From an uncultured virus (IMG/VR IMGVR_UViG_3300022198_000011) (taxonomy: Duplodnaviria; Heunggongvirae; Uroviricota; Caudoviricetes): DNA of 64,000 nucleotides. Of this stretch, positions 112 through 43,682 are shown in pieces. A program made the translations under genes and the position numbers. Under the pieces are notes generated by a model that saw nothing but the letters and a program-made list of their open reading frames with translations, was not told the DNA's origin and made no database searches. The stretch lies in IMG/VR virus record IMGVR_UViG_3300022198_000011; one strand, 5' to 3'. How positions within the stretch are numbered: the stretch's first letter is position 1; each line of letters opens with the position of its first letter.

Positions 112-204
112 CTCCAAAAAAAATTGAAAAAAATAATAATTTTACCTACAGAACTACCTTTCATTACCGATGGCCTCAAAATCTCAAGCACCTTAGGCCC
201 AGCC

Positions 205-729
205 ATGTCGGAAGCGTTTGAGCAGGCGTGGAGCGTCCTCAAGGCTCTCAACCCTGCTTTTCAGGACGACCCGAATGCTCCTGAGCAAGACTTGCGTCAT
301 TATCAAAACATGCAATCCATGCTCGACACCTACACGCCTCGTGGTAACACCAATCCACGGTGGCTTCAACCTGCTGGACACAAACCGCTCACGCCCTTCC
401 CGCAGGGCTTTGTTGACCTGAATCCGTGGATGGAAGCCGCCAATCTCGACCATCAAGCAAGGACATCTCGCAACCCCGCTGACGCTCGCATGTTTGCTCA
501 GCAGGCCATAGAGGCTCGCAACGCTCCCATAGCGGTTGAAGACCCCGAAGGAAGCCTCCCTGAAGCAATCCCATGGGAACAGGGCATCGACATGGAAGAG
601 ATACAGCGTTACCTTGCCGAAGCGCATCGACGCTCTATCGCTCCGCTCTCCTATCGTCGCAAAATCAAACCATTGAGCGATGAAGAAGTTGCTCGTGATT
701 TGAGGCGTCTGCGTGATTACAGGCGGTAA
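205..729 (+). CDS. Hypothetical protein with N-terminal AFxxAWxxLK tag
   Basis: Starts MSEAFEQAWSVLK at ATG 205, inside the 124..729 ORF; the same start is seen in the next gene. Confidence 0.75.
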   Translation: MSEAFEQAWSVLKALNPAFQDDPNAPEQDLRHYQNMQSMLDTYTPRGNTNPRWLQPAGHKPLTPFPQGFVDLNPWMEAANLDHQARTSRNPADARMFAQQAIEARNAPIAVEDPEGSLPEAIPWEQGIDMEEIQRYLAEAHRRSIAPLSYRRKIKPLSDEEVARDLRRLRDYRR

Positions 730-733
730 AAGC

Positions 734-1828
734 ATGTCGGAAGCGTTTGAGCAAGCGTGGTTGCTGCTTAAACAAGTCAATCGGCAGTCAAGGCTTCCCG
801 GCTACGAAGGGCAGATGATTGCTGATAGCAGGCGAAGCAGGCGAAGAGATGGCCGTGGCTTTGCGGATGAGGGGCCTCGTCAGATGGGGCCTTTCCTCGA
901 AGGTCTTGAAGAAGTTCTGAATAACCCACGGCAGCGTGAGCGTTATGTCGCCCGCAGAAGAATGCCTGCTCGCATCGTAAGGACATTTGAGAATCCAACT
1001 GCAGCAGGGTTTCAATTTGATGACGCTGTCACCTATGCCCTTGAAGACGAAGCAGGGGAACGGTTGGCTGAAATCCACACTAACAGAGAAAATCAAATCA
1101 GCGATTTTGCCGGTGAGGTCCCCGCACAGCATCGACGCAAGGGCTACTACCGTGAACTGATTGAAAATCTCATTCGGCATGGTTTCCCATTGACTTCACA
1201 TTCACGCAACGAAATGTCCGACCCGTTTCACAAAAAGTTCATTCGCACGCTACCTGACGACATAGATGTTAGCACGATATTTGATTCATCGGGTGACAGC
1301 GAATATGACGACCATCACTACACCCACGCTCCTTACTTCCCCGGCAAACACGGGCCGGGCGGCGATTGGGGCGACCTGCGCGGACCGCATCGTATCACCG
1401 TGCCCTTTTTTGACCGCTCAAGCGAGTCTTATCGAACTCGTGACCTTGAGGTGCCGGGACCAATAGCAGGAAGACCACATTACCATCGTAACCGGGACAT
1501 CATTGTCCCGACCGAGGCGGCTCGTGAAATCCTTGCTCGTGATAATGGTGGTTTTGACTATGAAAGACGAAGAGTGATTAACAGTCTAAAAAACGCACAG
1601 CGCGAAAAGGGGATAGATTCCCATTACAGCAATCCATCCTACGGGCTTGTGCAAGATGCGCCTATGCGTCTTCCCAATCCCGCTTACGGTTCGCGAATCT
1701 TTTCACAAAGTCGGCTTCCCGGTCTTTTGGAGTCAGACTACGCCGCTTGGGAGGCCAATCAACCGCTTTTCCCTATGGACGACGCATCGGAGATGGCTCG
1801 AAGGACACGGGCAAATTACATCCAATAA
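734..1828 (+). CDS. Tagged protein with a GNAT acetyltransferase-like segment
   Basis: Starts MSEAFEQAWLLLK; VPAQHRRKGYYRELIENL resembles the GNAT acetyl-CoA-binding motif A. Confidence 0.6.
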   Translation: MSEAFEQAWLLLKQVNRQSRLPGYEGQMIADSRRSRRRDGRGFADEGPRQMGPFLEGLEEVLNNPRQRERYVARRRMPARIVRTFENPTAAGFQFDDAVTYALEDEAGERLAEIHTNRENQISDFAGEVPAQHRRKGYYRELIENLIRHGFPLTSHSRNEMSDPFHKKFIRTLPDDIDVSTIFDSSGDSEYDDHHYTHAPYFPGKHGPGGDWGDLRGPHRITVPFFDRSSESYRTRDLEVPGPIAGRPHYHRNRDIIVPTEAAREILARDNGGFDYERRRVINSLKNAQREKGIDSHYSNPSYGLVQDAPMRLPNPAYGSRIFSQSRLPGLLESDYAAWEANQPLFPMDDASEMARRTRANYIQ

Positions 1829-1858: not shown

Positions 1859-2287
1859 ATGGTCCGACCCTTTGACGCCGCTTGGTCCATCATCAAGCAA
1901 TACGATGTGAACTCCTATCGTGGTCAGCGCACGCTGGGCCGTGAAGGGCGCATGGCGCTTCGTGACGATGCTATGGCTGGCGCTAACGCATTCCATCAGG
2001 CCCGCATCGACGCTATGCGAAACTTGCCTGACCCCCGAGATAGCCGGGGTGCGTTTTCACAGCCCGGCGGCGAGCCATTCAACCCGTTCGTGGAGCAGGC
2101 TCCTGTAGCGGCCGCTCCTCGCCCCATCGACACCGATGTTCCTCTTGGCTCAACGGGCCAAACGATGCCGCTCTCAGCGGGCAAACCCCGTGAGATGCGT
2201 CGTGGAGAGCGAGCGCCAACGACACCTCGCCCCGGTTTCCGCACCCGTGAAGCCATGCCGTTAACTGATTATCACTTCGGAGAGTGA
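1859..2287 (+). CDS. Tagged hypothetical protein
   Basis: Starts MVRPFDAAWSIIK. Confidence 0.75.
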   Translation: MVRPFDAAWSIIKQYDVNSYRGQRTLGREGRMALRDDAMAGANAFHQARIDAMRNLPDPRDSRGAFSQPGGEPFNPFVEQAPVAAAPRPIDTDVPLGSTGQTMPLSAGKPREMRRGERAPTTPRPGFRTREAMPLTDYHFGE

Positions 2288-2292
2288 AACCC

Positions 2293-2823
2293 ATGAGAGC
2301 CTTTGACGCAGCATGGTCCGTTATCAAAGCGCTCCCTGAAGACCAAGTGTTTGAGCAAAGGGGCGATGGAAGGTTTGAAACACAGCCTACACAAGAGCGG
2401 TTTGGAACCGTTCACCCCGCAATTCGAGGATTGCTGCAACGCCTTCATCGTGGAGTTGGGCCGGATGGATATACGGACTTTAATCGGGCAAGACCTTCAA
2501 TGCAATTTGACCCTCCCCGACATTGGTCGTCACCCGGTCCAAAAATTGAAGACTTAGGCACACTCTACGAAGACCCTGTCGAAACCATAAAACCAAGTCC
2601 GGGCTCTTCTCAACACAGCCTTGATATTGCTCAAAGGTCACATGGTGTGAAAGAATTACCTTACTTTGAAGATGAAGACCAAAACCTTGCTTTCTTTGCT
2701 CAATATCCAACAAGAAGTCTCCGAGAAGCCGCAATTCGTCGGCGCGAACAAGGGCAACCTATGAGGCCGTCGCACATATTTTCTCGATTCAGCAGAGATT
2801 CTGTTCCTTACAGGGAGTTTTGA
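2293..2823 (+). CDS. Tagged hypothetical protein
   Basis: Starts MRAFDAAWSVIK; shares TVHPAIxG and PS..F with the next gene, so probably a distant paralog. Confidence 0.75.
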   Translation: MRAFDAAWSVIKALPEDQVFEQRGDGRFETQPTQERFGTVHPAIRGLLQRLHRGVGPDGYTDFNRARPSMQFDPPRHWSSPGPKIEDLGTLYEDPVETIKPSPGSSQHSLDIAQRSHGVKELPYFEDEDQNLAFFAQYPTRSLREAAIRRREQGQPMRPSHIFSRFSRDSVPYREF

Positions 2824-3377
2824 TGATGAGAGCCTTCGATGCAGCATGGTCTGTTCTCAAAGCGGACCCTCGTCAACGAATGTTTGGCCCTCCTTCGGGC
2901 GGGCCGGGGAACATCTCGGTCAGTCAAACAGTTCACCCTGCTATTGCCGGTATGGTTCAGCGGGCCACAGACCCGTATGGATTGCCGCCGTCAGTGAGCA
3001 AACCTTTCAATTTTGACTCAAGCCGACCGCGACCGTTCGACACCGTCACTCACACCAACCCACAGACCGGTGAAAGTCGCTCATCCGCTTCAGACCTTGA
3101 ACGAAGAAGTCTCAGCAATATCAATTCTTACGAAGCAGGGACTCCTCATTCAAAACTTATGACGGCTTTGGATAACGCCTTTGTTCCTGATTTTAGAGAA
3201 GGGGCTACGCTCAACCGACCACCTTATGTCACGAGTAGGCCCATGACACCGGAAGAGATTGCTACCGGTGAGCCGGATGCGACATCACCCATGGCTTTCA
3301 GAAACGATGTGAGGGAAAATAGGGAAGGACGAGAGTTCCGAGACAGCCTCAAAACAGCCCGTCAATACGGCCTTTGA
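2823..3377 (+). CDS. Tagged hypothetical protein
   Basis: Starts (M)MRAFDAAWSVLK; contains QTVHPAIAG. Confidence 0.75.
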   Translation: MMRAFDAAWSVLKADPRQRMFGPPSGGPGNISVSQTVHPAIAGMVQRATDPYGLPPSVSKPFNFDSSRPRPFDTVTHTNPQTGESRSSASDLERRSLSNINSYEAGTPHSKLMTALDNAFVPDFREGATLNRPPYVTSRPMTPEEIATGEPDATSPMAFRNDVRENREGREFRDSLKTARQYGL

Positions 3378-3416: not shown

Positions 3417-3572
3417 ATGCTGTTGCCGACGCTGCTCTTCCTCTCTTTCATAGCGGGGTTTGTAACGATGTGGCTGGCTACCCCCGACCCCACTGACACT
3501 GTAGTTTTCATTGAAGACGAGGCGGCCTTTCACCAAGCCTGCTTCAACGGAATGCGGAGGGGCATCCAGTGA
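3417..3572 (+). CDS. Small 51-aa membrane protein (not in ORF track)
   Basis: MLLPTLLFLSFIAGFVTMWLATPDP...RRGIQ*; N-terminal hydrophobic helix; TTTAATTT at 3387; its stop overlaps the GTG of the next gene (GTGA). Confidence 0.6.
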   Translation: MLLPTLLFLSFIAGFVTMWLATPDPTDTVVFIEDEAAFHQACFNGMRRGIQ

Positions 3573-4414
3573 AAGTCACCGTCTACGAGGTCGGTCCTCG
3601 GGACGGTTTGCAGTCACTTTCGCATGTCGTGCCGACTGAAAAGCGTCGTGAACTCATCAATGCTCTCTACAACGCCGGTATCGAGCACATCGAGGAAGTT
3701 TCGTTCGTTCATCCCAAGATTTTGCCGCAAATGGCCGATGCCGAGGCGGTTTTCACAGGAAAAGGGTCGGTTTTGGTGCTCAATCAGCGTGGATTTGAGC
3801 GTGCGATGGCCTGCGGCGCTGAAAAAGTGAACATCGTCCTCTCACCGTGCGAAACATTCTGCATGCGCAACATGGGTAAGCGACATGGTGAGTTGATGCT
3901 TACTTATCGTCAAATGTTGAACAACTACTCCAAGGAAAAGGTCCGAGTCTACATCTCGATGGCCTTTGGAAGCCCTGATAGCGGCTCTTTTGGTCGAAAA
4001 CACCTGCAAAACATGGTTCGAGACGCCAAAATGTTCGGCGACACGGTGGTTTTTGCCGATACGGTCGGCTGTGCGAGTCCCAGCGACATCTCGGTAGCAG
4101 CATCGGTCGCTTTTGAAAATGAAATGACGCCAGCGCTGCATTTGCATCATCGTGGAGACGAATCACAGGCGATTTCACTCGTTCGAGCCGGTTTGCTTGC
4201 CGGAATCCGGCAATTTGACTCGTCCATCGGGGGTCTTGGTGGTTGCCCATTCGCTGAAGGCAGCGGTGCTAACCTTGCTACCGAAACATTGGTTCGCCAT
4301 CTCAACGCTTGGGGCTTTGAAACAGGCATTGACGAGCGTAGCCTGCAGGCTGCGGAGCAAATAGCGATGCGTCTCAAAAATGCTTTATCAAGCGACATCA
4401 TGACAGTGGTATGA
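3569..4414 (+). CDS. hmgL: Hydroxymethylglutaryl-CoA lyase (DRE-TIM metallolyase), auxiliary metabolic gene
   Basis: EVGPRDGLQ, SFVHPK..PQMAD, ADTVG, HLH and DSSIGGLGGCPFAEGSGANLATE motifs are all present. Confidence 0.92.
   Translation: MKVTVYEVGPRDGLQSLSHVVPTEKRRELINALYNAGIEHIEEVSFVHPKILPQMADAEAVFTGKGSVLVLNQRGFERAMACGAEKVNIVLSPCETFCMRNMGKRHGELMLTYRQMLNNYSKEKVRVYISMAFGSPDSGSFGRKHLQNMVRDAKMFGDTVVFADTVGCASPSDISVAASVAFENEMTPALHLHHRGDESQAISLVRAGLLAGIRQFDSSIGGLGGCPFAEGSGANLATETLVRHLNAWGFETGIDERSLQAAEQIAMRLKNALSSDIMTVV
4384..4401 (+). promoter_or_regulatory. TATA-like box plus shared AAGCGACATCAT element
   Basis: TTTATC-AAGCGACATCAT begins 27 nt before ATG 4411; the same 12-mer occurs at 6061-6072. 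Confidence 0.55.
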
Positions 4415-5142
4415 GCGGAGCCTTTGACGCAGCGTGGGCTGTGCTCAAGATGGCTCGCTACACCGCAGGCCCCTACGAGATTTGGGACAGCAACGAGCGT
4501 GTTCGTGGCTCTGAAGGCGATGCTCAATTTGCTCACCTACCGCAAACCTACACTGTGCCCAACTTCAAGCAAGATGAAGAAACAGGTGAGTGGATTGAAA
4601 GCGGAACAAGAGAAGAAAAGCAATACTACCCCATCGGTGAAAACTCGGGCTTTGAACTCAAAGCCGGTAAAATGATGATGACCCCCGAACAATTTCACCA
4701 ATTGGTAGGGGCTCCCGCACCCGAACACCGCTCAGGTCAACAAACGGCCATTCGTGAGTTTATGGACCAAGGTGCGCCGATTGCCGCCCCGTTCCTCAAA
4801 GTCATGCCCGAAGAAGGCGGTGGATTCAGAGTTGTAGGACACGAAGGTCGACATCGCATGCAGGCACTTCGTGATGCAGGCTACGGCGATGTCCCTGTTC
4901 CGATTGAATTGCAGAGTAGCAAATACCTCTTCGGTCATGACATGACCAATGAGAAGTTAAGAGAAGCATTGATGAACGCTATCCTGCGTCCCGAATACGG
5001 TTACTACGGAGCAGATGAACTCGCACAAGCACGCTCACATCATGACGCTGATGAAGAATACCGAATGGGTTTGCATCGGCTCAATAAGCCTCTGTTAATC
5101 AACAACATCGACCCCGTGTGGACACGAGGTGAATACCGATGA
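4411..5142 (+). CDS. Tagged protein with ParB/Srx-like N-terminal-fold domain
   Basis: Starts MSGAFDAAWAVLK; FRVVGHEGRHRMQALRDAGYGDVPV matches the ParB/Srx GxxR signature. Confidence 0.7.
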   Translation: MSGAFDAAWAVLKMARYTAGPYEIWDSNERVRGSEGDAQFAHLPQTYTVPNFKQDEETGEWIESGTREEKQYYPIGENSGFELKAGKMMMTPEQFHQLVGAPAPEHRSGQQTAIREFMDQGAPIAAPFLKVMPEEGGGFRVVGHEGRHRMQALRDAGYGDVPVPIELQSSKYLFGHDMTNEKLREALMNAILRPEYGYYGADELAQARSHHDADEEYRMGLHRLNKPLLINNIDPVWTRGEYR

Positions 5143-6041
5143 GGGCTTTTGATGCAGCATGGGCTGTGTTGAAGGCGGAAAAAGTGAGCGTTTCAGGATT
5201 ACCCATGGGTGAAGGGTCGTTCCGACAGGTCTTTCCAAACAGAAGGAACAGGAACGAAGTCATCAAACTCCCTAACATGGGCGGGCAGCAAATGACAAAC
5301 ATCGCCGCCATGGACGCCTTGGCTCAACTGGGTTATCCGGTCATGCCTGAAACACCGGTTTTAGCCTACAAAATTGGAGGCACTGTGCAAGGTCCTTACC
5401 CCGGAACAACGCAGCCGAGAGCGAACGCTGTGGTGTCGGATGAAAAGGCTCGTTTGTCAAACGACCCCGACACTACATGGCAAGAGCAAACTGATTTTCA
5501 GAATCAATTCAGAGACACAGTGCGGCACCCGCTCATTACCTACGGGCCGATTCAGGACCCCTTGATGCAGGCCATAGGCGTTACGGATGTTCGTGAAGCA
5601 AACACGGGCATTTACGACGATGGTATGAAAGCCATTGACTTTGAAGTGATGAATCTTGGCGCTCATAGAGAGCCAACTTACGATGAAAATGGTCAGAAGT
5701 GGGCATCGACGATGCCTCGTTTGAAAGATTGGTTGAAAGTGCCCGATGAGCAACGACGCAGTTTCATCAACATTTACGGGGACACTTCACGCTTTGAGCC
5801 TTGGAATGACGCTCGCAACCCTCGCACGGGGTATCTTGGAACACAAGAAGAACTCTACAGAAGAGGGCTTCGTAACCTCCAATTGATGAACGACATGATT
5901 GACAACCCTGAGCAGCGTCGTTTGTTTGAGTTTGTTGGTGAAGAGGAAAAAGACCGCGGTGAAAGTGAGTATTACTGGGGTCAGAAACTTGGTGCTCAAA
6001 AATGGCGAGACATGATTCAAAATCGAGAGCCAGTGGAGTAG
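5139..6041 (+). CDS. Tagged protein with a protein-kinase-like fold
   Basis: Starts MRAFDAAWAVLK; MGEGSFRQV (Gly loop), VIK, DVREAN (DxxxxN) and AIDF occur in canonical order. Confidence 0.65.
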   Translation: MRAFDAAWAVLKAEKVSVSGLPMGEGSFRQVFPNRRNRNEVIKLPNMGGQQMTNIAAMDALAQLGYPVMPETPVLAYKIGGTVQGPYPGTTQPRANAVVSDEKARLSNDPDTTWQEQTDFQNQFRDTVRHPLITYGPIQDPLMQAIGVTDVREANTGIYDDGMKAIDFEVMNLGAHREPTYDENGQKWASTMPRLKDWLKVPDEQRRSFINIYGDTSRFEPWNDARNPRTGYLGTQEELYRRGLRNLQLMNDMIDNPEQRRLFEFVGEEEKDRGESEYYWGQKLGAQKWRDMIQNREPVE

Positions 6042-6054
6042 CCAGCGCAACCGC

Positions 6055-6072
6055 TATATGAAGCGACATCAT
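6055..6072 (+). promoter_or_regulatory. TATA-like box plus shared AAGCGACATCAT element
   Basis: TATATG-AAGCGACATCAT begins 27 nt before ATG 6082. Confidence 0.55.
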
Positions 6073-6081
6073 CGCAGTTGC

Positions 6082-6423
6082 ATGAGCCGTGCTTTCGCTG
6101 CCGCCTTTGACCTCATCAAAATGAATCACTTCAACGCCACCTACGGTGCTGCGTTATTCGATGCCTTGCTCATGAAGGCCTTGGACGACGGTGTGCTGCG
6201 TAAGAACATTCAGGATTACATGCACATGTCTCTTGCCGAACTGGCGGATTTGCCTCCTGAAGAAAAGGAATATGCTTTCAGTCTCCTTCAGGAGCACCTT
6301 GCCGCTCAACCCAAGGCGACGGAAAACCCTGAGGGCGAAACCCCCGCTCCCGAAGACGCTGTGCCTGAGCCTGTCGCCAAAGCCTTCTACTCGGTGATGA
6401 ACGATTACTTTGGCTTGTTGTGA
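6082..6423 (+). CDS. Small acidic protein with a variant tag
   Basis: Starts MSRAFAAAFDLIK; internal LLMKA and VAKA. Confidence 0.7.
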   Translation: MSRAFAAAFDLIKMNHFNATYGAALFDALLMKALDDGVLRKNIQDYMHMSLAELADLPPEEKEYAFSLLQEHLAAQPKATENPEGETPAPEDAVPEPVAKAFYSVMNDYFGLL

Positions 6424-6429
6424 TGTCCA

Positions 6430-9399
6430 ATGACATCCTCGTTCGACCCGGACGATGTTGAAAAGTTCTTTCCAGCGATTGCCGCTGTCGCACGAGCCGG
6501 TCTTGGTGCAGCCAAAGCAGGGGCTAAAGCCGCAGGTAAAGCAGCAAGCGCTACCGCAGGTGCAGCCAAAACAGGGGTCGGTAAAGTCGCCGATGCTGCT
6601 AAGACCGCTGGCTCTAACATCACAGAGGGTCTTGGAGAACTCAGAGAGCAAGCCAGCGCCGCTATGCAGAGCGGCACGCCGCAAAACAAAAAATTGCAGC
6701 GAACCATGATGGTTCAACAAAGCATTCAACAGCGGCAGCAGGCAGCCGAGCAGCGAAAGCGGGAGCAGGAGCAACGAGCCACTGAGATGGCTCGCAGTGC
6801 AGCATCTACGGGGACAACCATTGGTAAATCTGACGAAGCGTTCGAGATTGATTACAATGAGCCTTCACATCTTGAAACTGGGACACTCAATCCTGATGAT
6901 ATGTGTCAACTCTGCAAAGAGCAACCCGCACAATACAAAACTGGATATTCGGCACGAGGTCGACCGCATAGCCCAGTTACCTACAACCTCTGTGAATCGT
7001 GCTTTGACTCGTTCAGTCACGGAGGGCAAATGTCAACCTATTCCCAATTCATCAAAGGTGAACCGATGGACTTTGCTTGGCGGTTGTTGAAAGAAGAAGT
7101 GCTCGGTGGCGACCAACACGCTTCTACCGGGGACCCTCGTTTTTGGGACATCATGAGGCATTACGGTTACTACGACCCTTACGCTATCAATCAAGCCTTT
7201 GAACCATACCCACTTCAGCAAATGAGTGAACTGACACCTCATGTTGACGAACTCCTCGCATCTTACGGTTATGAGCCGTATTACTTCGGCGGGCGTTATC
7301 CGATGCCCGACCTCAACAAAAAGAATTACGAAACTGGTCATCTCGCGATTTACGACCCGGAAGTTCGCACGGCTGGGTTCAGTGACACGGCATTTACCGA
7401 CAACTGGCGAAAATTGCACGAACTCGGGCATGCCCTTGGTCTTGAAGACATCAACGCAAAGTGGGGTGAAGGTCGTCGCTTAGGGAAACTCGGCGTTCGC
7501 ACTCCTCGTGAAATGTTGCGTGCAGTCGACTGGGAGCGTGCGGCCATGGAAAATCAACGAGATTTGATGAACGAGGTTGGTCTACAAATTACCCCTGAGG
7601 CTCGCTATAACAGGGATTGGAACACGACGATTGGCGATGCTGCTTTCCGGGCCATTACTGGGAAGTTCACATCCCCTGAAACAGAGGGCTTTGTTCCCTT
7701 CAGCGAGAAAATACCTTTGGACATCGCCATGCGAAAAGTCCGTGAGCGTGCGGATGAGTTGGGACTCGACATGGATGAGACATTGAGAGACAAGCGAGGT
7801 GGCGCTCGCAAAATTGCATCAGAGCCGATGGACCTCGCTTGGCGTCTGCTCAAGCAGCAGACCTTCAACGACTACTTCGGCATCAAAGACCAGTGGGTTT
7901 CACTGCCCAAAGAAGGTATGGATGAGCGGCCTGAACTCTACAATGAAGTGGCTGAGGCCATGAACATCGCCTATGCTCCGATTGGCGGCCATGCTAAATA
8001 CAAGAACGCCGATGACCTTCGTGGCGAAAGTAAGCATGCTCGCTACGACTTGATTGACAACGACGAAGACCCGTATGTCGACGCTGCGCATGTTTTCCAA
8101 GAAACTGAGCACGGCTTCAAGTCATCAGTGCTTGGACAAGACGGCTCTCAGGCCGGTAGGCGTGCTGTTGTTGGTCACGCCGTTGAAGCGATGAACACAC
8201 CGGGGCATTTCATGGAGGCCAGCGGTCCAATGGCTTCGGTGCTTGAGCGCAATCAAGTCGGTGTCGTCGAGAGTCCTGAGATGATTCAACGAGTGTTGGC
8301 GGGTAAGGACATTCGCATGCACCCCGATGGCGGAGGCGTCTACACTCGCACCATTGGAGACGAAGAGCACGACAAGCGTATCTTTGGTCAACCGCTTGAG
8401 AACGCAGTCGCCGTTACTCAACCTTTCATGGAGCAAGTCTACAACCGACAAAGCATGACCAATCCGTTCGACCTCTTTGGAAAATCAGATGAGTTTATAG
8501 ACGAAGCGTTTGACATGGGTTATCCCCTCATTCCTTACGATGAACTGCATGACAAGCAACGAGTCATCGCTGACTTTATCTCCAACAAAGATGGGCAGCA
8601 TGTTCCATCTTACTGGACTGACCCGGCCAGTCGTGAATATGAAACTGAATACTACAGCGGCATGTTTCGGTCGGACAAACACCATCTTTACCCTGATGAA
8701 GCGTATGACCAATATCATCGTTACCTGCAGCATTACTTTGATGCTGCAAAAGACACCGCCGCTCTACCTCGTGAAAAGCAGTTTTTCTTGATGTCACAAG
8801 AGGCTAAATCGCACCCTGAACATCCCAACAACATCGCTCTTGCTCGAATGGCTGAGGAGTTTCCTGAATGGGATGTCGAAAATCCCCATAAAGCCTTTTG
8901 GGAACGCTATAATAAATCTCAAGGAGGGCTTGCGTCTCGCATGGCATCCGGCGGCTTCCTTCGCTCGGAAGTGCTTGTTAAAGAGCGCAAATCACCTGAG
9001 GCCATGCGTCACAAGCGGGAATACGACGCTGCTTACAACAAGCGTCCTGACCAAGTCAAGTATCGTGAAGAATTGAACCAAGAGCGACGACGCCGTGGAA
9101 TCATGGGAAGTCACAATCACATGGATGTCAGTCACACACAAGGCCATCGCTTGACCCTTGAGCCTGAGCATTCCAATCGGGCTCGCCACTTCAGGGAAAA
9201 GGGCACACTGCGTGTGGTGAAATCAATGAAAGAGGACCTTGAACTCCTACGCAACTTGATGCAGGGTCCAATGGATGAGCAAGACAAGAAAATCGCTACG
9301 GCCATGGTCGGCATGCTCGAAGAGCGCCACGGTGAAGACGAAGACGATAAGGATGACCTGACCCGCCCGATGTTTGGCGGTGGCGACCTCTTCCTCTGA
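6430..9399 (+). CDS. 989-aa multi-module polyprotein-like protein (Ala/Gln-rich region, Zn finger, HExxH peptidase-like, HNH-like)
   Basis: CQLC...CESC; LHELGHALG; internal EPMDFAWRLLK (7060) and EPMDLAWRLLK (7822); GKSDE twice; basic C-terminal module with DVSH...SNRARH. Confidence 0.75.
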   Translation: MTSSFDPDDVEKFFPAIAAVARAGLGAAKAGAKAAGKAASATAGAAKTGVGKVADAAKTAGSNITEGLGELREQASAAMQSGTPQNKKLQRTMMVQQSIQQRQQAAEQRKREQEQRATEMARSAASTGTTIGKSDEAFEIDYNEPSHLETGTLNPDDMCQLCKEQPAQYKTGYSARGRPHSPVTYNLCESCFDSFSHGGQMSTYSQFIKGEPMDFAWRLLKEEVLGGDQHASTGDPRFWDIMRHYGYYDPYAINQAFEPYPLQQMSELTPHVDELLASYGYEPYYFGGRYPMPDLNKKNYETGHLAIYDPEVRTAGFSDTAFTDNWRKLHELGHALGLEDINAKWGEGRRLGKLGVRTPREMLRAVDWERAAMENQRDLMNEVGLQITPEARYNRDWNTTIGDAAFRAITGKFTSPETEGFVPFSEKIPLDIAMRKVRERADELGLDMDETLRDKRGGARKIASEPMDLAWRLLKQQTFNDYFGIKDQWVSLPKEGMDERPELYNEVAEAMNIAYAPIGGHAKYKNADDLRGESKHARYDLIDNDEDPYVDAAHVFQETEHGFKSSVLGQDGSQAGRRAVVGHAVEAMNTPGHFMEASGPMASVLERNQVGVVESPEMIQRVLAGKDIRMHPDGGGVYTRTIGDEEHDKRIFGQPLENAVAVTQPFMEQVYNRQSMTNPFDLFGKSDEFIDEAFDMGYPLIPYDELHDKQRVIADFISNKDGQHVPSYWTDPASREYETEYYSGMFRSDKHHLYPDEAYDQYHRYLQHYFDAAKDTAALPREKQFFLMSQEAKSHPEHPNNIALARMAEEFPEWDVENPHKAFWERYNKSQGGLASRMASGGFLRSEVLVKERKSPEAMRHKREYDAAYNKRPDQVKYREELNQERRRRGIMGSHNHMDVSHTQGHRLTLEPEHSNRARHFREKGTLRVVKSMKEDLELLRNLMQGPMDEQDKKIATAMVGMLEERHGEDEDDKDDLTRPMFGGGDLFL

Positions 9400-14228: not shown

Positions 14229-14629
14229 TGGAAGTCCCTGTTCCCGACTTGTTGCAGGTGGCTCATCCCGGCTACCGCCTCGTTATCGCTCGACCTCATC
14301 TCAACGATGAAGACATCATGAGCGTTGTCGACTATGCTCAGCGAATGGCCGAGCGTTTTGAGCACTACGGTCAAATCGTGGTGACAGCACCCTTTTTGTT
14401 TGAAATGCTGAAGGAGAGTTTCCACACTTTGCTCAACAACGATGACCCTTCAGTTGTAATCCCGGTGCGTGAACTTACAGCCCGTTTGCTTCAAGAACAC
14501 GAACACATGACGAACAACATGGTCCGGGCCTTCCCAGTCAACCCGGTCGTTAAAGGCGTCTATACTGACCTCAGCGAAGTGCTCTTCGACGCCTTCGATT
14601 CACTAACTGGAGGTGACATGGATGACTGA
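14228..14629 (+). CDS. Hypothetical protein
   Basis: GAGGAG SD; translationally coupled to its neighbours. Confidence 0.65.
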   Translation: MEVPVPDLLQVAHPGYRLVIARPHLNDEDIMSVVDYAQRMAERFEHYGQIVVTAPFLFEMLKESFHTLLNNDDPSVVIPVRELTARLLQEHEHMTNNMVRAFPVNPVVKGVYTDLSEVLFDAFDSLTGGDMDD

Positions 14630-16046
14630 GGGCATGATGGGTCGTGGCTCGGACACCCGCATCTACGCTCCACGCTCCGAGTCTTCGCACATGTTCCGTG
14701 CAAACCACGAAGACGAGGAAACCCCTACTGGCTTGGAAGATGCTCGTGACAAAGAAGCACGGATGGACCGCAAGCAGAAAAAGCAGGAGCGGGAAGAAAA
14801 GGAGGACCGTCAGATTCGACACATCAAGGTGCGTCGTCATCACATGGGTCTTGGTGACAAACCCGAAGAGGGAATGGAAGAAGAAGAGTCTTTGTTCAAA
14901 CCTCGTGAGTCACCCACTGAACCAACGCAACCTGCTGGTGCCGGTGGATTCTTGACCAGCCTCGCTGCTCAGGCTAAGGGCCCCGGTGCTGCCGGTGGTG
15001 AAATGATTCAGATGAGTGAGTCGATGGCTTACGCTTGGTCTGATATTCTCAAGTTCGACCGTTCGGATGAGTTGTATGAACTTGCTATGGAAGCCATGGC
15101 TTTGGGTTATGCTGATAATTTGGAGGATGCTTACAAAATCGCTGAAGAAGAGGCTGAGTTGACTGCTCGTATGCCTTTACCACCCGAACTCGATGATTCC
15201 ATTCCTGACCCTGAGTTTGACCCCCAGTTCCAACAGAAGAACGCCAGTGAGCCGATGGTCTACGCTTGGTCTGAATTGTTGAAGTCCAAGCGTAAGCAAG
15301 AGAAGCGTCGTAAGACTGAAGAGCGAGCCAAGTGGCGGCCCTCCACTGGTAAGTTCAAGCGTCCTCGTGGCGGCTACACCGGTCGCTCAGGCACCTCGGC
15401 TCGGGCTAAATTGTTGTCTCGCAACCTCCCCATGGGTCGCAAGACGGGGTTGATGCAACCTCACTTGTCAGTTGAGATGTCTCACCGCGGTATCGCCAGT
15501 AAGCAGCCAATGTCCAAGGACCCTCAGGCCTACGGACAGTGGCGAGGCTACCAAGAGCAGCAGAGCATTCGTGGTCAAATTGCTCCTCAAAGCGGAGCGG
15601 CACTGCCCTTTGGGCAGGTTCGGATGCCCAGCGCCCCTCGACCTCGTCTTCATCCTGTTCGTGCTCCCCCAATTCAGCCGCCTAAGATGCGCATGCCTCA
15701 CTTAAACCGACCAAGTATGCCGGGTATGGTGACCATGAGCGAAGACCCTGTGCCTGAAGGTGACCTCCTGAAAGCGGGCACAAATCACTACCTTCTTGCT
15801 GAAGCCCGCACTGCTCTCCGTGAAATGCGACAACTCATGCGTCGCATGAAAGACAAGGATGACAAAAAGAAAAACATGGGTGCGCCTGACACCGCTGGTG
15901 CGGCGTCAACGCTACCAAAATACCCCGGTAACAATCCAAAGCAAACCACTCGTGGTGAAGGAGGGACGGAAGACGAAAACGACCCTCGAACATGGGGACT
16001 TGACCCCATTGGACAACTCGTCGGACGAGGGGGTAACCGAGCATGA
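14622..16046 (+). CDS. Multi-module protein with two internal tags
   Basis: GGAGGTGA SD; ESMAYAWSDILK (15018) and EPMVYAWSELLK (15249); alternating acidic and very basic blocks. Confidence 0.75.
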   Translation: MTEGMMGRGSDTRIYAPRSESSHMFRANHEDEETPTGLEDARDKEARMDRKQKKQEREEKEDRQIRHIKVRRHHMGLGDKPEEGMEEEESLFKPRESPTEPTQPAGAGGFLTSLAAQAKGPGAAGGEMIQMSESMAYAWSDILKFDRSDELYELAMEAMALGYADNLEDAYKIAEEEAELTARMPLPPELDDSIPDPEFDPQFQQKNASEPMVYAWSELLKSKRKQEKRRKTEERAKWRPSTGKFKRPRGGYTGRSGTSARAKLLSRNLPMGRKTGLMQPHLSVEMSHRGIASKQPMSKDPQAYGQWRGYQEQQSIRGQIAPQSGAALPFGQVRMPSAPRPRLHPVRAPPIQPPKMRMPHLNRPSMPGMVTMSEDPVPEGDLLKAGTNHYLLAEARTALREMRQLMRRMKDKDDKKKNMGAPDTAGAASTLPKYPGNNPKQTTRGEGGTEDENDPRTWGLDPIGQLVGRGGNRA

Positions 16047-18382
16047 GGCCCGTGTTCGTGTTGAAGTCAGCGGACATTCTGCTGAAAGGGCACGGTAACT
16101 ACGCTTTTTTCAACGGTGTGCCGCATCTTTTGACGAACCCCCCTCCCGAAGCGATTAACCCGGACCCCGAAGGGCCGGATGTCCCACTTTTTGCTCACTA
16201 CGGTAACTCTCGACCTCACCCTTCCGGTCATGCGGGCATGGGTGAATTGCTTGAGGGTGAGTTTCAACGAGGCAAACACGGGGAGATGACCTATCACACT
16301 GACGGCTTCGACCATCACCACGGGCACGACGGTGTATGGCATCATCTCGGTGAGGCACTTGAGCGAGCCGGTTACGACCCACGCTTGGCTAAGGAACTCC
16401 TACAGCGAGCCATTAACGAATACAATGACACGCATAAGGACCGAAGCGGAGCGCACCATCTACCTGATGTTGACTCCATGGAGTGGCGAAAACTCAAGGC
16501 CACTCCTTACAACGCAAACATGGAACCGACCCGTCGTCCTAACCGTAGCGTTGATGGACATTTTGTTACGACTTTTACCAATCGACCGAACCGAAACGAA
16601 AAGGTCGGTCACTTTGTTGAATCCTATTCGATTCCTTACTGGAAACAACTGGCGGCCATTGTCCGAGAATACGGACTCGACGACATTGCTAACATGGAGT
16701 GGACGACACGAGGCCACATCTCAATCGACGACCTTCATCCAGCCGGTCGGCGTTTGAAAGGTCGCGGTGGAGATGTCATTGGTCAGGGTGGACAACTTCC
16801 TGATTCACACATCACCAACGCTCCCGGCGGTGTCAACTTTAATCCCGCATTTGACTCAGTGCAGTCGTGGTCGGTTGCGCACCACATGCCTGATTTGATG
16901 CACTACAAGTTGGCTTCGCAAAAAACGCCACCGTCTGAAACCATGCGCAGTGCTCGTGGTCATATCAAGGAGGCTTTGAAGCGGGCTGCTGAAAATCCCG
17001 ATATTATCCCTGATGTGCAGGTGCCTATCAACACGGCTCAAACTGCTGGCGGGACCAACTACACGATGCAGCCTCTTAAGACGGTCTTGTCCAATGAAGA
17101 GATGCTGAAAAATCTCCTGAATGAATTGGGCTCAACTTCGGCCCTCACGGCCTTATTCGGTCGACTTAAGTCAGGTGGTCAGAAGCGTCCCAGTTCAGGT
17201 GCTCGTATTTTCAGTCACTTGTTGGATGCGTTCGGTGGCGACCCTGACGAAGAAGGCAAGCGAACTCAGTTTGATAATTTGATGGAGCATGCTCTTCAAG
17301 GTGAGCACATTCCACTTGAGCCTGAGTTCATGTCGGGCACAAAGCATCCGACGAAGAACGGGAGCACACACAAGAACATGGCTCAGATGTATGTCAAGGC
17401 CATGTTGGCTCATCACAATGAATCCCTTCCTCAGTTGAGAGATTACCAGCCGGATGCTCAGACGCTTCAAGCCTTGGGCGTGAGTCACGAGGGTATTAAG
17501 GAAGAGCAAGTCAACGCTCGCCGTCAGGCTATCGAAGGTATCGCCGACATGATGGCTCGTGCGTTTGGGCATGAAGAGCGTCGTGCTGTTCCCGATGAAC
17601 TACCGACGACCGGTCTTGCTGGGCGAACGGTGATGGGTTACCCTGAGGAACTTATCCCGTCCGTCCCTGAGCATGTCCCACTCTTTACTGACTTGTCCAT
17701 GGGAGCAGCATCGGTAGCACCTACAGCCGCACCTCGTCCTGAACCTGCACCTCGTCGTCCTGTGACTGAAGGAGTGGTGGCTCCGCCTGCCGCTACGCCT
17801 CCGATGGCTGCGCCAGCACCAGCACCTGCACCTGAGGCAGCACCTGCACCTGTGGCAGCACCTGCACCTGTGGCCGTTCGCCGCACCGGGGGCATCCCAA
17901 TTGGGCAATTGTCGCCTGAACAGCAGGCTGCCCGTATGGGTGTGGGTCAGGCTGACCCAGCGACCTTGCGTCAATTCATGGAATTGAGCGGCATTGGTCC
18001 AAAGCCCGGCACAGGTGAACTCACTGAGCAAGAGCGACAATTCCAGCAGACTTTTGGTGACCCACGGCAGCGTCTTCTTACAGAATACATGAAAAGTCAG
18101 GACAACATGTTGCCTGAAGCGGACCGGTTGATGAAGGCCATGGAGCAGATGCAGCGCGATGACGCCATGAAGAGTGACCGCGTCATGAAGCACGCTTTGA
18201 CTCGTCCAGTTAACATCGCTGATGAGCACGGTGTCCGCCATCTTGCTAAGCACCTCAATCTCACACCTGTCGATATTCGCTCCATCGCCCATCAAATGGG
18301 TGACTGGGAGCGCATAGCCAAGCGCCTCAACATCTCATCGGATGTGGTCAAGGTTGTCAAAATCAGTGTAGGGGGGATTTGA
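16043..18382 (+). CDS. 779-aa hypothetical protein with a Pro/Ala linker, possible head-internal protein
   Basis: Starts MRPVFVLKSADILLKG; PAPAPA tract; C-terminal HTH-like helices. Confidence 0.7.
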   Translation: MRPVFVLKSADILLKGHGNYAFFNGVPHLLTNPPPEAINPDPEGPDVPLFAHYGNSRPHPSGHAGMGELLEGEFQRGKHGEMTYHTDGFDHHHGHDGVWHHLGEALERAGYDPRLAKELLQRAINEYNDTHKDRSGAHHLPDVDSMEWRKLKATPYNANMEPTRRPNRSVDGHFVTTFTNRPNRNEKVGHFVESYSIPYWKQLAAIVREYGLDDIANMEWTTRGHISIDDLHPAGRRLKGRGGDVIGQGGQLPDSHITNAPGGVNFNPAFDSVQSWSVAHHMPDLMHYKLASQKTPPSETMRSARGHIKEALKRAAENPDIIPDVQVPINTAQTAGGTNYTMQPLKTVLSNEEMLKNLLNELGSTSALTALFGRLKSGGQKRPSSGARIFSHLLDAFGGDPDEEGKRTQFDNLMEHALQGEHIPLEPEFMSGTKHPTKNGSTHKNMAQMYVKAMLAHHNESLPQLRDYQPDAQTLQALGVSHEGIKEEQVNARRQAIEGIADMMARAFGHEERRAVPDELPTTGLAGRTVMGYPEELIPSVPEHVPLFTDLSMGAASVAPTAAPRPEPAPRRPVTEGVVAPPAATPPMAAPAPAPAPEAAPAPVAAPAPVAVRRTGGIPIGQLSPEQQAARMGVGQADPATLRQFMELSGIGPKPGTGELTEQERQFQQTFGDPRQRLLTEYMKSQDNMLPEADRLMKAMEQMQRDDAMKSDRVMKHALTRPVNIADEHGVRHLAKHLNLTPVDIRSIAHQMGDWERIAKRLNISSDVVKVVKISVGGI
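17813..17874 (+). repeat. Coding tandem repeat (GCACCT-based; 18-nt unit duplicated)
   Basis: GGCAGCACCTGCACCTGT x2 plus partial copies, encoding APAPAPEAAPAPVAAPAPV. Confidence 0.8.
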
Positions 18383-19653
18383 TGAGTAAAGTCCTCGTGC
18401 TGAAATCGTTTGAACTCTACGCTGACCCTGCGGGAAACTTGACTCAGCAGCAACTAATTGGCGGCCCTGCTCCGAAAGGGTTGCCGCTGGAAGCGCAGAC
18501 GCAGCGAACGCCCGAAGAAGTCTATGTCGCAAGGCGAGATGCGGCACTCACCGCTCCTAACTTGGAAGGTGCTGCTTCGCCTTCTGAGTTTGAAGACCCT
18601 GACCTCGCCGCTCAGCAGCGGCGGGAACTTGCTGAAATGAAGCGCAAGGTCAAAGCCGGTGAGTTTCGTAGTCATCAAGAGCGCTACGGACATCAGGGCT
18701 TCGCTGGCGTTGTTGAAGGGGGTAGGAGAGGACGACAAGGACCGATGACTGAACAGCAGATAGGTGACGCTCGCACTGCTGGTCAACGGGCAGGTAAGGT
18801 CGGCGTCTTTGGGCGAAGGCTTGGTGCTGGTCTTGCCGGAGCACTCGGTGGCCTCTCGGCTGTCACTGCGCTTGAGCAGGCCGGGGCGTCAGGTGCAGGT
18901 CTTGAACAGGGTCTTGGCTCGGCTGCTATTCGGGGGATGACAACCACCAGTGCTGCTCGCCCTCATCTTGAAAGCGCTGCTGGTGCAGCGGGAGCACGCC
19001 TTGGCGCTGGTTCAGTTGGTGTTCAACGCAGAGCCCAGCAAGGTTTGGAGCGAGGGCGTCAGGCTTTGGAAAACCGTCGTGCAAATCGTGTAGCCGTCGC
19101 TCAGCCCACCGTGGCTCAACCCACACCTGCACCTGTCCCGTCAGGTCCTACTCCCCCTCCTTACGCCGAATACCGAGCCGGTCTTGAGGCTGAGCGAGCC
19201 CGACTGCAAAGGGCTCTTCAATACAACCTGCCCGGCACGCTACGAGGGGCAGAGCAGCGTTTGATTGGTGTTGAACGACTCCTCAACCCAACCACAGCGA
19301 GGCAACCGTTTGACATGCGAGGAGGCGCTTACAACACCGATGTTTTCGAGCCCGTGCCTCAATTTAACCCAGCATCACGAGCGCCCAATGACCCAAATCA
19401 AACACAACTACCCGGTGCACCTGTCACGGCATCGCCAACCACCGCTTCATCGACGGAGCAAAGCAAACTCCCCATACCCCCCAAGACGGCGGAAGGTATG
19501 GCTGCTGCGTTTCCTCAATCAACTGCTGCTGACCCGTCAGATGGAATTGCTGAGCCAACGACTGGTAAAGACGCTGCTGAAGCAGGTGCCGCTCTTGCTG
19601 AAAAGTTCAGTGGGAAGAAGCAAAACATGTCGACAATGGGGGTTGAGGAATGA
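18382..19653 (+). CDS. Gly/Ala-rich hypothetical protein
   Basis: Starts MSKVLVLKS; LGAGLAGALGGLSAV glycine-zipper-like segment. Confidence 0.7.
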   Translation: MSKVLVLKSFELYADPAGNLTQQQLIGGPAPKGLPLEAQTQRTPEEVYVARRDAALTAPNLEGAASPSEFEDPDLAAQQRRELAEMKRKVKAGEFRSHQERYGHQGFAGVVEGGRRGRQGPMTEQQIGDARTAGQRAGKVGVFGRRLGAGLAGALGGLSAVTALEQAGASGAGLEQGLGSAAIRGMTTTSAARPHLESAAGAAGARLGAGSVGVQRRAQQGLERGRQALENRRANRVAVAQPTVAQPTPAPVPSGPTPPPYAEYRAGLEAERARLQRALQYNLPGTLRGAEQRLIGVERLLNPTTARQPFDMRGGAYNTDVFEPVPQFNPASRAPNDPNQTQLPGAPVTASPTTASSTEQSKLPIPPKTAEGMAAAFPQSTAADPSDGIAEPTTGKDAAEAGAALAEKFSGKKQNMSTMGVEE

Positions 19654-21134
19654 GCGACAAGTCTGCTGAGATGCAAGAACTTGTCATCGAGATGGACAAG
19701 AAAATGTCCGCTCGGTCGTTCAAATACTTCTTTGAGACGGTGCTTGAGTTCGACTATGCTAACCACCACGGCATGTGGGACAAGGGATTGGCTGACAACC
19801 GCTACTACTGCGTGAAGGCATCTCGTGACCACGGTAAGTCCGTGTTCTTCATGTCCTACGCCCTGTGGATTGCTGCTTTCAATCCCGGCACGCACATCAT
19901 GATTTTCTCTCACTCGTTGGAGCAGACGCTTGAGCACATGCGTTTCATCCGACAGAACATTCAGAACTCACCGTGTTTGAAGGATTTGATTCCCTCGGGT
20001 AAGCCATGGCGTAAGACCTACTTCGAGTTCACCAACGGTAGCCGTATCATGGCCAAGTCAGTCGGTGGTGGAACTCGTGGTTTCCACCCGGATGTTGTGT
20101 TGTGTGACGACATTCTGTGGGGAACCACTGGGTCTGAACTGCAGCGTGCTGCAGACTGGTTTTACGGTGTTTTGCTTCCTGTTCTCCACCACACGGGTCG
20201 CTTGATGATGGTGGGCACACCGTTCAGTTACAACGACCTGTATGCTCAACTTGAGAAGACGGAGACATTTGTCGTTGAAACCTACCCTGCTATCAACAGG
20301 GAAGGTGTGGCTCTGTGGCCTGAGCGTTGGAACCTTGAAGCACTCGACCAGCGGCGCATGTCGATGCCTGCTATTCAGTTCACTCGTGAGTATCTCTGTG
20401 AACCAATTCACGATGTCGCCAGTATGTTCCCAATGACGCTGCTTGAAAAGGCCCGTGACCATGAACTCAAACTTCTCGATGTCGCTGACGCTGAGTATGA
20501 TGAGAACGGTGAGCGAGTCGGTGTGCTCGGTCATCATTTCATTGGTTGGGACACGGCCATCGCATCGGACAAGAACGCTGACTACACAGCCATAACAGTT
20601 TTACGCACGCTACCTGACGAAGATGTCAAGCAAATCGTGGGCAGTGTGCACGAGCAAGGTATGGGGTCAGCAGCACAGAAGCGAGCCATCATCCTTCTCA
20701 ACAACAAGTTTCAGCCCGACCTCATCGAACTCGAAGGTAACAACTTCCAGCGTATGTTCGCTATGGAACTGCAGGATATTCGCCAAGATATTCCAATCCG
20801 CACTTTCATGACGACTCGCACCCGCAAGGAGAGTTTGTTTATGTCACTCTTGATGGCGTTTGAACAGGGTCAAATTAAGACGCCTTACGGTGACGACCGC
20901 TCTCGTCGTTTTACGCACAAACTCGAAGAGGAATTGACCCGCTTCGGTATGCAGAAGAATGGACGACTCGAAAGCGTAGGTGTGCATGATGACCTCGCCA
21001 TGTCCCTCGCTCTCGCCAACTGGGCGACCAAAGAGTTCCGAGGAAGCGTAGTGATGCTTGATGATTACATGCCCGGATTCGATGATTGGCTCACGGGCGA
21101 ACCAAGAAAAAATGATGGATGGATGATACCATGA
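19650..21134 (+). CDS. terL: Terminase large subunit
   Basis: Walker A ASRDHGKS, Walker B VVLCDD, VGTP, LWPERW, nuclease GWDTA...DYTA and HDDLAMSLALA. Confidence 0.95.
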   Translation: MSDKSAEMQELVIEMDKKMSARSFKYFFETVLEFDYANHHGMWDKGLADNRYYCVKASRDHGKSVFFMSYALWIAAFNPGTHIMIFSHSLEQTLEHMRFIRQNIQNSPCLKDLIPSGKPWRKTYFEFTNGSRIMAKSVGGGTRGFHPDVVLCDDILWGTTGSELQRAADWFYGVLLPVLHHTGRLMMVGTPFSYNDLYAQLEKTETFVVETYPAINREGVALWPERWNLEALDQRRMSMPAIQFTREYLCEPIHDVASMFPMTLLEKARDHELKLLDVADAEYDENGERVGVLGHHFIGWDTAIASDKNADYTAITVLRTLPDEDVKQIVGSVHEQGMGSAAQKRAIILLNNKFQPDLIELEGNNFQRMFAMELQDIRQDIPIRTFMTTRTRKESLFMSLLMAFEQGQIKTPYGDDRSRRFTHKLEEELTRFGMQKNGRLESVGVHDDLAMSLALANWATKEFRGSVVMLDDYMPGFDDWLTGEPRKNDGWMIP

Positions 21135-22558: not shown

Positions 22559-22720
22559 ATGTCCTCAGCCTTTGACATTGCTTTTGACGACCTTCGCAAG
22601 AAGTTGTGTCCTGAAGGCAAGGCAGCGGCCAAGAGGAAGTTCAAGGTCTACCCGTCAGCCTACGCCAACGGATGGGCCGTGCAATACTGCAAGGGTAAGT
22701 TCAGGGGGAAGAAGAAGTGA
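22559..22720 (+). CDS. 53-aa basic tagged protein (not in ORF track)
   Basis: MSSAFDIAFDDLRKKLCPEGKAAAKRKFKVYPSAYANGWAVQYCKGKFRGKKK*; GGTGA SD; GTGA overlap with the next gene. Confidence 0.75.
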   Translation: MSSAFDIAFDDLRKKLCPEGKAAAKRKFKVYPSAYANGWAVQYCKGKFRGKKK

Positions 22721-28551: not shown

Positions 28552-28564
28552 CGGTGGTGTGAAT

Positions 28565-33982: not shown

Positions 33983-34026
33983 TGCCGCTTTATTTATGTA
34001 GGAGAGCAAACAGAGGGGTGGTTAGT

Positions 34027-43407: not shown

Positions 43408-43682
43408 TTGAGGCTTTCCTCAGTCGCAAGACCGTCGCCACCCCCGACGATGTCGGGATGCAAATGGAACTGTGGGGGTATATCGTGGCGAAGCACTACG
43501 GTATTTCACTGAAGGAAGTGCATGAGATGACGCCCGAAACTTTCCAGCAATCTCTCGTTTGGGCGCTTGTCGGCAGAAGTCAAGAGGAAAAGGAAATGAA
43601 GAGGCAGCGACAAGAGGCAAAAAGCGGAGGTCAGGAGACGGTGTCTCTTGATTATGCTTGGCTTGAGACGGAGGACTTTTGA
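43404..43682 (+). CDS. Tail assembly chaperone frameshift extension (gpT-like)
   Basis: In the -1 frame relative to the upstream ORF; YIVAKHYGISLKEVHEMTP. Confidence 0.65.
   Translation: MIEAFLSRKTVATPDDVGMQMELWGYIVAKHYGISLKEVHEMTPETFQQSLVWALVGRSQEEKEMKRQRQEAKSGGQETVSLDYAWLETEDF

Follow-up and report, generated by a model that had tools for sequence, protein, structure and literature searches.

The open reading frame (ORF) at 6430-9399 (+ strand, ATG start, 989 residues) of the uncultured tailed-virus record IMGVR_UViG_3300022198_000011, which we analysed as one 64,000-nt stretch of DNA (the window), appears to encode a modular 'polyvalent' protein, in which a frame of modules A and F-G holds exchangeable cassettes (B, C, D and E). 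Its joints are marked by a tag of about 11 residues, an amphipathic helix ending in Lys, which also heads several neighbouring genes. That the protein is modular, tag-delimited and shuffled is well supported by sequence comparison. As to function, we read it as a polyvalent virion-cargo protein whose tags would direct both head loading and cleavage after the Lys, with a probability of roughly 60%.

The seven pieces between motifs were named modules A to G, and all motifs claimed for the ORF by an initial annotation, made from the sequence alone, are present where it had placed them:

6430..6828 (+), residues 1-133: module A, the constant N-terminal part, with a conserved FDPDDVEKF start
6823..6837 (+), residues 132-136: GKSDE no. 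1, a broken half-tag
6829..7092 (+), residues 134-221: module B, a CxxC...CxxC zinc-ribbon-like cassette
7060..7092 (+), residues 211-221: tag 1, EPMDFAWRLLK, a predicted helix
7093..7854 (+), residues 222-475: module C, an HExxH zincin-like domain with its fold at residues 227-458
7417-7431 (+), residues 330-334: HELGH, within module C
7822..7854 (+), residues 465-475: tag 2, EPMDLAWRLLK, a predicted helix
7855..8484 (+), residues 476-685: module D, an alpha/beta domain whose matches to the GNAT fold are weak but agree with one another
8479..8493 (+), residues 684-688: GKSDE no. 2, the first half of a variant tag
8485..8982 (+), residues 686-851: module E, a helical cassette
8971..8982 (+), residues 848-851: VLVK, a degenerate tag
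8983..9222 (+), residues 852-931: module F, basic, the most widespread module
9214..9225 (+), residues 929-932: VVKS, the natural end of module F
9223..9399 (+), residues 932-989: module G, an acidic helical tail

Module A fits its earlier description as Ala- and Gln-rich (23% Ala, 10% Gln): an Ala/Lys-rich stretch is followed by a Gln-rich predicted long helix, and its last residues are the half-tag T-I-G-K. The Cys pairs of module B are CQLC at 159 and CESC at 188. The basic module and acidic tail are likewise borne out, with isoelectric points of 10.4 for F and 4.2 for G.

Homologues were drawn from a collection of 5.8 billion proteins (77 near-length, 120 shorter and 4 longer); the near-length and shorter sets together make up the 197 homologues referred to below. 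Colinearity over the full query is seen in almost none of them. They show 56 module architectures, the commonest frame with an identifiable start being A, unrelated sequence, then F-G. Close relatives lack single pieces (P0001 is without B, P0002 without E, P0004 to P0006 without C) or both C and E (P0010), and others have permuted orders: C-E-D in P0012 and P0014, D-C-F in P0017. Module F occurs alone behind an N-terminal tag in a 92-residue protein and as E-tag-F in proteins of 258-278 residues; in some relatives E is the first module after the N-terminal tag; and G accompanies F, also in stand-alone proteins of 143 residues. At the other extreme are a 1866-residue relative with the frame A...C...F-G and nine tags, and a 1027-residue ORF (locus L088) with one N-terminal and five internal tags. 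Searching segment by segment, as the initial annotation had proposed, thus finds the modules on their own, rearranged and in different combinations. The colinear, unshuffled homologues that it had named as contrary evidence did not appear: none of the 197 repeats A-B-C-D-E-F-G, and deletions and permutations are common. Its claim that domain boundaries fall on the Lys-ending motifs is also upheld, in that the modules are independent and breakpoints cluster at the motifs: of the 329 internal BLAST alignment ends (182 homologues), 233 are no more than 15 residues away from one of the six motif lysines, where a uniform distribution would put 19%. It had further proposed an origin by fusion of individually tagged cassettes; because single modules with their own N-terminal tag exist, both fusion and fission of tagged cassettes are the natural reading.

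The joints are not all equal. GKSDE had been taken for an independent Lys-ending motif, and here the initial annotation has to be amended: it represents the front half of a variant tag, x-F-G-K-A-W-x-x-L-K, which an inserted module has split. At the position of GKSDE no. 1 relatives have a full tag (T-G-E-P-M-E-I-A-F-Q-L-L-K) or a variant one (A-F-A-K-A-W-V-L-L-K or T-I-G-K-A-V-G-V-L-K), and at that of no. 2 relatives without module E have F-G-K-A-V-L-V-K. The simplest source of such half-tags would be recombination inside tag-coding DNA. In most relatives a full tag directly precedes module F, with its final K aligned to that of VLVK, which is therefore a degenerate tag. Module F ends in G-T-L-R-x-V-K, and many relatives stop right there, so that VVKS is the natural end of this module.

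Structure prediction gives the same picture of the borders. The full-length model is poor (mean predicted local distance difference test score, pLDDT, 47.8), and its low-confidence segments (116-152, 195-377, 382-496, 669-711, 830-855 and 925-933), which separate better-predicted blocks, hold all six motifs, with both full tags predicted helical. Folded alone (46 sequences), module C reaches pLDDT 90.6 and a predicted template modelling score of 0.88, with disorder only in the first 5 and last 6 residues; since its fold spans residues 227-458, both full tags lie outside. The motifs are thus not inside folded domains, which was the other finding that the initial annotation had said would speak against it.

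The 197 homologues contain 229 internal tags, of which 159 are distinct, and these give the consensus E-P-M-D-I-A-[FWMY]-[RQ]-L-L-K, where the next residue is mostly E, D, A or Q. The window form can be written as F/M-D-x-A-W-x-phi-phi-K (phi for a hydrophobic residue). The tag also stands at the N-terminus of nine other ORFs in the window, and internally in three more:

124-729 (+): N-terminal tag
713-1828 (+): N-terminal tag
1859-2287 (+): N-terminal tag
2284-2823 (+): N-terminal tag
2820-3377 (+): N-terminal tag
4411-5142 (+): N-terminal tag
5139-6041 (+): N-terminal tag
6058-6423 (+): N-terminal tag
14613-16046 (+): second multi-tag ORF, two internal tags
21119-22552 (+): one internal tag
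22717-23319 (+): N-terminal tag
23316-24224 (+): DUF5872 protein, tagged twice internally

In total at least 13 window ORFs are tagged, and many more N-terminally tagged genes are found in the related loci L082-L099. Relatives of ORF 14613-16046 (401-925 residues) have up to 4 tags. ORF 23316-24224 has a basic stretch, K-K-Q-G-V-G-G-K-P-T-phi-V-K, twice, after the DUF5872 part and at the C-terminus. The 243-residue product of ORF 4411-5142 contains G-H-E-G-R-H-R-M-Q-A-L-R, which resembles the ParB/sulfiredoxin-type motif of DdrB-like polyvalent domains, without a profile match. Just before the terminase gene, ORFs 16043-18382 and 18379-19653 (both +) start V-F-V-L-K-S-A-D-I-L-L-K-G and V-L-V-L-K-S; the former start is kept in relatives as phi-L-V-x-K-S-x-x-I-L-L-K-G-D-G, and the same ORF has a sub-threshold Death-domain match (E 3.3e-4).

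A degenerate 9-residue expression for the tag has 12 matches in the + coding frames of the window and none in the - frames, while residue shuffling of the 43 ORFs gives 0.011 matches per shuffle (1000 shuffles, maximum 1). At the DNA level, an 18-base degenerate pattern for A-W-x-phi-phi-K has 11 matches against 0.27 expected (100 dinucleotide shuffles, maximum 3). Synonymous codon differences are seen among the tags of the window and across 43 distinct internal tags of relatives; with the codons varying and the peptide fixed, what is selected is the peptide sequence rather than any DNA repeat or ribosome-binding word. This bears on one way of obtaining separate modules without proteolysis, namely that the tag Met and its preceding G/S-E-P codons form an internal ribosome-binding site and start for nested proteins. 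Stand-alone relatives do start exactly at the tag Met (M-D-L-A-F-R-L-L-K...), and one window tag has GGTGA four bases before its ATG. Yet the N-terminal type of tag has Phe, not Met, at that place, and the codons that precede the ATG differ among the 43 internal tags (GGC, GGT, AGC, AGT, TCT and others), with no Shine-Dalgarno-like word kept; we rejected internal initiation as scarcely credible.

The tag appears to be new to the literature covered. Its strings, searched in the full text of about 8.4 million publications and preprints, occurred only in an unrelated immunology paper, and no relevant motif, N-terminal tag, polyprotein or ejection proteins are mentioned in the main text of the magrovirus papers PMC5434244, PMC11706807 and PMC10160649.

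The gene content of the window is that of a tailed-virus late region:

19650-21134: large terminase, TerL
25470-27179: portal
33979-35373 (+): S78 prohead serine protease with a long scaffold-like C-terminal extension
35413-36585 (+): major capsid protein
43679-45016: tape-measure-like protein

Whole-genome tag counts were made on the record nearest to the window, which has 107,060 bp, is rated complete and has all sampled words in common with it. It has 11 A-W-type tag sites, all on the structural-gene strand and none elsewhere, at distances between roughly 13 and 35 kb upstream from the capsid gene; the tagged stretch adjoins the terminase, portal and protease genes, and the remaining ~83 kb are without tags. 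In five further genomes (89-99% complete) all 24 sites fall on the strand that carries the structural genes; they are clustered, except for one outlier, and there are 0 in controls. A looser count in the window points to the same side: phi-phi-K occurs within the first 40 residues of 17 of the 32 ORFs up to and including the capsid gene (2.9 expected), and in 1 of 11 on the tail side (1.0 expected).

Proteases of the HK97 type (S78) are generally described as cutting the capsid protein after a Lys. The window protease matches PF04586 (E 4e-9; 37.3 bits, family cut-off 21) and PHROG head maturation protease families. Alignment of 27 proteases shows sequences that are variable before a phi-L-K↓G/A site (arrow, putative cut) preceding the S78 domain, while the L-K and what lies downstream are invariant. 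A second invariant site, A-T-F-x-I-L-K↓E-D (A-T-F-K-I-L-K↓E-D in the window, residues 175-185), lies at the border of the S78 domain and the extension and is itself tag-like (P-E-A-T-F-K-I-L-K, compared with M-D-F-A-W-R-L-L-K); a third conserved Lys follows D-E-I-M. The border site suggests that the protease may free itself of the scaffold-like extension by self-cleavage there. The N-arm of the capsid protein retains S-E-L-L-K↓A-D in all 80 related loci, a site that lines up with M-S-K↓A-D in the halovirus HVTV-1.

Put together, these observations suggest the following series of events. The tag would dock its bearer into the assembling prohead; the S78 prohead protease would cut after the final Lys of the tag, as well as at its own two phi-L-K sites and the capsid N-arm; and the freed modules would leave with the DNA at ejection and act early in infection. 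As the cassettes all share the tag, recombination within tag-coding DNA could exchange them, swapping, inserting and deleting cassettes and leaving GKSDE and VLVK behind as hybrid or half tags. We propose, more tentatively, that the tag is a portable 'load-and-release' code, by which any tagged protein would be admitted to the prohead and released there by the HK97-type protease through a cut behind the Lys, with the tag DNA as a recombination joint for moving cassettes between genes and genomes; the injected set might then be readable from sequence.

Several points weigh against cargo loading and cleavage. Both steps are ones that we infer, as is the cutting into separate effectors during head maturation that the initial annotation had suggested; the link to the prohead protease comes from the tag-like sites in protease and capsid protein and from the confinement of the tags to the head-gene side of the genome. 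The tag expressions were derived from the same data that they count. The capsid L-L-K is weak evidence alone, because the whole capsid N-terminus is conserved, and the head-module genes of HVTV-1, the nearest cultured relative, have no tag. Finally, a cut after the K alone would leave the next module's tag at each C-terminus, which is untidy unless there is a second cut.

An alternative is that the tag serves solely for docking or addressing, with the cargo loaded uncut, or bound uncut to another viral structure, and the repeats adding avidity. In phage N4, for example, the virion RNA polymerase is packaged without being processed. An 11-residue consensus far exceeds what a protease site needs and resembles a binding helix, the degenerate joints GKSDE, VLVK and VVKS are tolerated, and some polyvalent proteins are transferred full-length (Iyer et al., PMC5512222). 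We nevertheless hold this unlikely: the final Lys is invariant, tag-like sites at the protease domain borders and on the capsid N-arm suggest a scissile bond, and N-terminal placement on single-module proteins is typical of propeptides.

A role with no relation to the virion is improbable. The tag would then target a host structure or membrane, recruit to a viral factory or chaperonin, or be a linker that promotes exchange. Hybrid and half tags at the joints do show recombination inside tags, and no tagged protein has a functional match in Pfam, NCBIfam or PHROG. But the free variation of the codons around a fixed peptide shows selection on the peptide; the tags are confined to the neighbourhood of the terminase, portal and protease genes, with none in the rest of the genome; and tag-like sites are present in the protease and the capsid protein.

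Database searches say little of what the modules might do. Whole protein and single modules matched, in Pfam, PHROGs and NCBIfam, only phrog_6437 (module F), a family with no assigned function, and a ZZ finger (module B) at E 0.0019, below the Pfam cut-off. Sequence searches of the PDB (whole protein; profiles of C and F) found nothing meaningful, and the full-length model, run through Foldseek and VIA, yielded no more than low-scoring GNAT matches for module D and unspecific helical ones.

Module C is the best defined. Its family comprises 314 representative clusters; the proteins that contain it range from 185 to 2933 residues, and it may stand anywhere in them. Against the PDB there was no Foldseek match at E <= 0.001 and no VIA match at Z >= 5, and Pfam had none; the weak PDB matches are ArdC of plasmid R388 (6sna_A; Z 4.6, rmsd 7.3 over 133 residues), PprI (Z 3.8) and a Bacteroides zinc peptidase (E 0.19). 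Against viral models there is one true homologue (E 1.7e-21), followed at E 0.008-0.3 by phage peptidase, M48, SprT-like, lethal-factor and polyvalent-protein entries. With HExxH invariant in 46 of 46 aligned sequences and these weak zincin fold matches, the peptidase-like label given earlier to HELGH has some support. A Pfam scan of 30 distant module C proteins found partner domains in 13: S-AdoMet lyase, NUDIX, LigT, InPase, mCpol, GNAT, DUF7178, DUF3293 and DUF5661.

Module C itself, or another non-capsid peptidase, might process the protein at the tags, before packaging or after injection. Processing of polyvalent proteins by a zincin domain was proposed by Iyer et al. (PMC5512222), and both the invariant HExxH and the fold matches to ArdC, PprI and the phage peptidase, M48, SprT-like and lethal-factor-like models agree with such an activity. 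We consider it very improbable at the tags: module C is present in only 1 of the 5 near-complete tag-bearing genomes, 0 of 135 distant module C proteins are tagged, and many relatives of the 989-residue protein lack C and yet have tags. The prohead protease remains our candidate.

For the other modules there are leads only. Module D may be GNAT-like: its top Foldseek rows are all GNATs, although weak (E 0.02-0.2), and VIA gives GNATs at Z 5.1-5.4 over 85-138 residues, also weak, in a region of pLDDT 55-85 with no Pfam match. Module F may be HNH-like: it has a predicted beta-beta-alpha (hairpin plus helix at residues 898-924) and an invariant D-x-S-H...N-R-A-R-H, with no Pfam or PDB sequence match and, in the atlas, an HNH_3 cluster no higher than rank 20 (score 0.87). 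For modules A, B, E and G there is composition only, plus the zinc-ribbon-like CxxC pair in B.

Among the closest known systems are the polyvalent proteins (Iyer, Burroughs, Anand, de Souza and Aravind 2017, PMC5512222), in which unrelated domains are strung together and are predicted to be packaged in the capsid, delivered with the DNA and processed by zincins. HExxH zincin-like domains and GNATs are typical of them, and their genes lie near those of portal and terminase. Our protein resembles them in its varied domain combinations (seven modules, with the many architectures and permutations described) and in its place near the head genes of a portal-terminase virus, with TerL and portal and then protease and capsid protein downstream; moreover, distant relatives of module C sit in polyvalent proteins with the domain repertoire described there (PMC5512222). 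It differs in that every joint is tagged and that the tag also heads single-domain genes, features absent from the available text of PMC5512222. It also differs in its candidate processor, which is the prohead protease and not a zincin, and in a host that is probably archaeal.

In phage T4, the capsid targeting sequence (CTS) is an N-terminal peptide of IPI-III and Alt that loads them into the prohead and is removed by the head protease, the proteins then being injected. The tag is similar in being a short N-terminal peptide common to unrelated head-side proteins, here on nine window ORFs. The CTS, however, is N-terminal only, weakly conserved and cut after Glu by a protease of another family, whereas the tag is strongly conserved, Lys-ending and repeated inside polyproteins, beside an S78 (HK97-type) protease. 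The phiKZ-type cleavage motif is short, A/S-x-E. In phiKZ and SPN3US many head-internal proteins are cut by the prohead protease at a common motif and ejected (PMC5694885, PMC7411985, PMC10052503), but these are paralogous families, not shuffled cassettes with a portable tag. The Dar proteins of phage P1 (DarA, Hdf, DarB and DdrB) are anti-restriction cargo assembled into the head, and the prohead protease trims off the N-terminus of DarA beside the capsid protein cleavage site (PMC12810830). There, loading is hierarchical, through DarA and Hdf, with no common transferable tag. Encapsulin cargo-loading peptides are also short, occur on unrelated cargo and bind inside an HK97-fold shell; they are usually C-terminal and uncleaved, and serve a cellular nanocompartment.

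As far as its genes allow, the virus is probably a magrovirus-like tailed virus from the sea that infects archaea of the Poseidoniales (Marine Group II). Its capsid protein is 33-34% identical to those of the Haloarcula viruses HVTV-1 (34%), HCTV-5, HCTV-1 and relatives among 50,697 phage records, in which the sole match outside the HVTV-1/HCTV group is one Methanofastidiosa virus; in IMG/VR the capsid gene has more than 599 relatives, on contigs of up to ~105 kb. Magroviruses are described as ~100 kb in size, with a capsid protein ~33% identical to that of haloviruses only (PMC5434244), and the record size and capsid identity pattern found here fit that description. Their portal and protease show a like moderate similarity, limited to haloarchaeal siphoviruses, and an archaeal-type replication module (DNAP B, RFC, MCM, primase) is a further mark of the group. 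The virus group is abundant in the sea and uncultured.

We also note some features of the surrounding genes. (i) Directly after the tail genes, ORF 46264-63246 (+; 5660 residues) is probably a giant fibre or adhesin; its only family match is to Laminin_G_3 / concanavalin-like near the N-terminus (E 3.4e-6). (ii) Between portal and protease, ORF 28409-33982 (+; 1857 residues) has no match in Pfam, PHROG or NCBIfam. Its position is that of HVTV-1 genes 113 and 115 (1048 and 1313 residues), the latter annotated as 'zeta toxin', and it has phi-phi-K at residue 24 if a GTG start is used. (iii) ORF 24247-25473 (+; 408 residues), between the tagged genes and the portal, matches HNH endonuclease phrog_5046 (E 1.4e-8) and may be a homing-endonuclease-type insertion. 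(iv) A small tail-module ORF, 42546-43082 (+), has a SAP domain (PF02037, E 6e-12), which is characteristic of DNA-binding proteins from eukaryotes and archaea. (v) An HMGL-like gene (HMG-CoA lyase / aldolase family; 3569-4414, +; PF00682, E 2e-24) stands untagged amid the tagged ORFs; auxiliary metabolic genes were not seen in magroviruses by Philosof et al. 2017.

The concepts involved, a targeting peptide combined with a prohead protease and polyvalent cargo, are already known from T4, phiKZ-like phages and P1. What sets the present protein apart is a conserved tag at every joint that also heads neighbouring genes and is found across the lineage as a peptide signal. If our reading is true, the head-carried, injected proteins of uncultured ocean viruses would become listable from sequence alone, in relatives that carry dozens of cassettes. 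It would also provide a testable case of the assembly and disassembly of polyvalent proteins, which Iyer et al. left as a hypothesis (PMC5512222), as well as a short, naturally occurring peptide that loads cargo into an HK97-type capsid and releases it. Cassette exchange at peptide joints would be a mechanism for fast turnover of early-acting, probably counter-defence, proteins of archaeal viruses.

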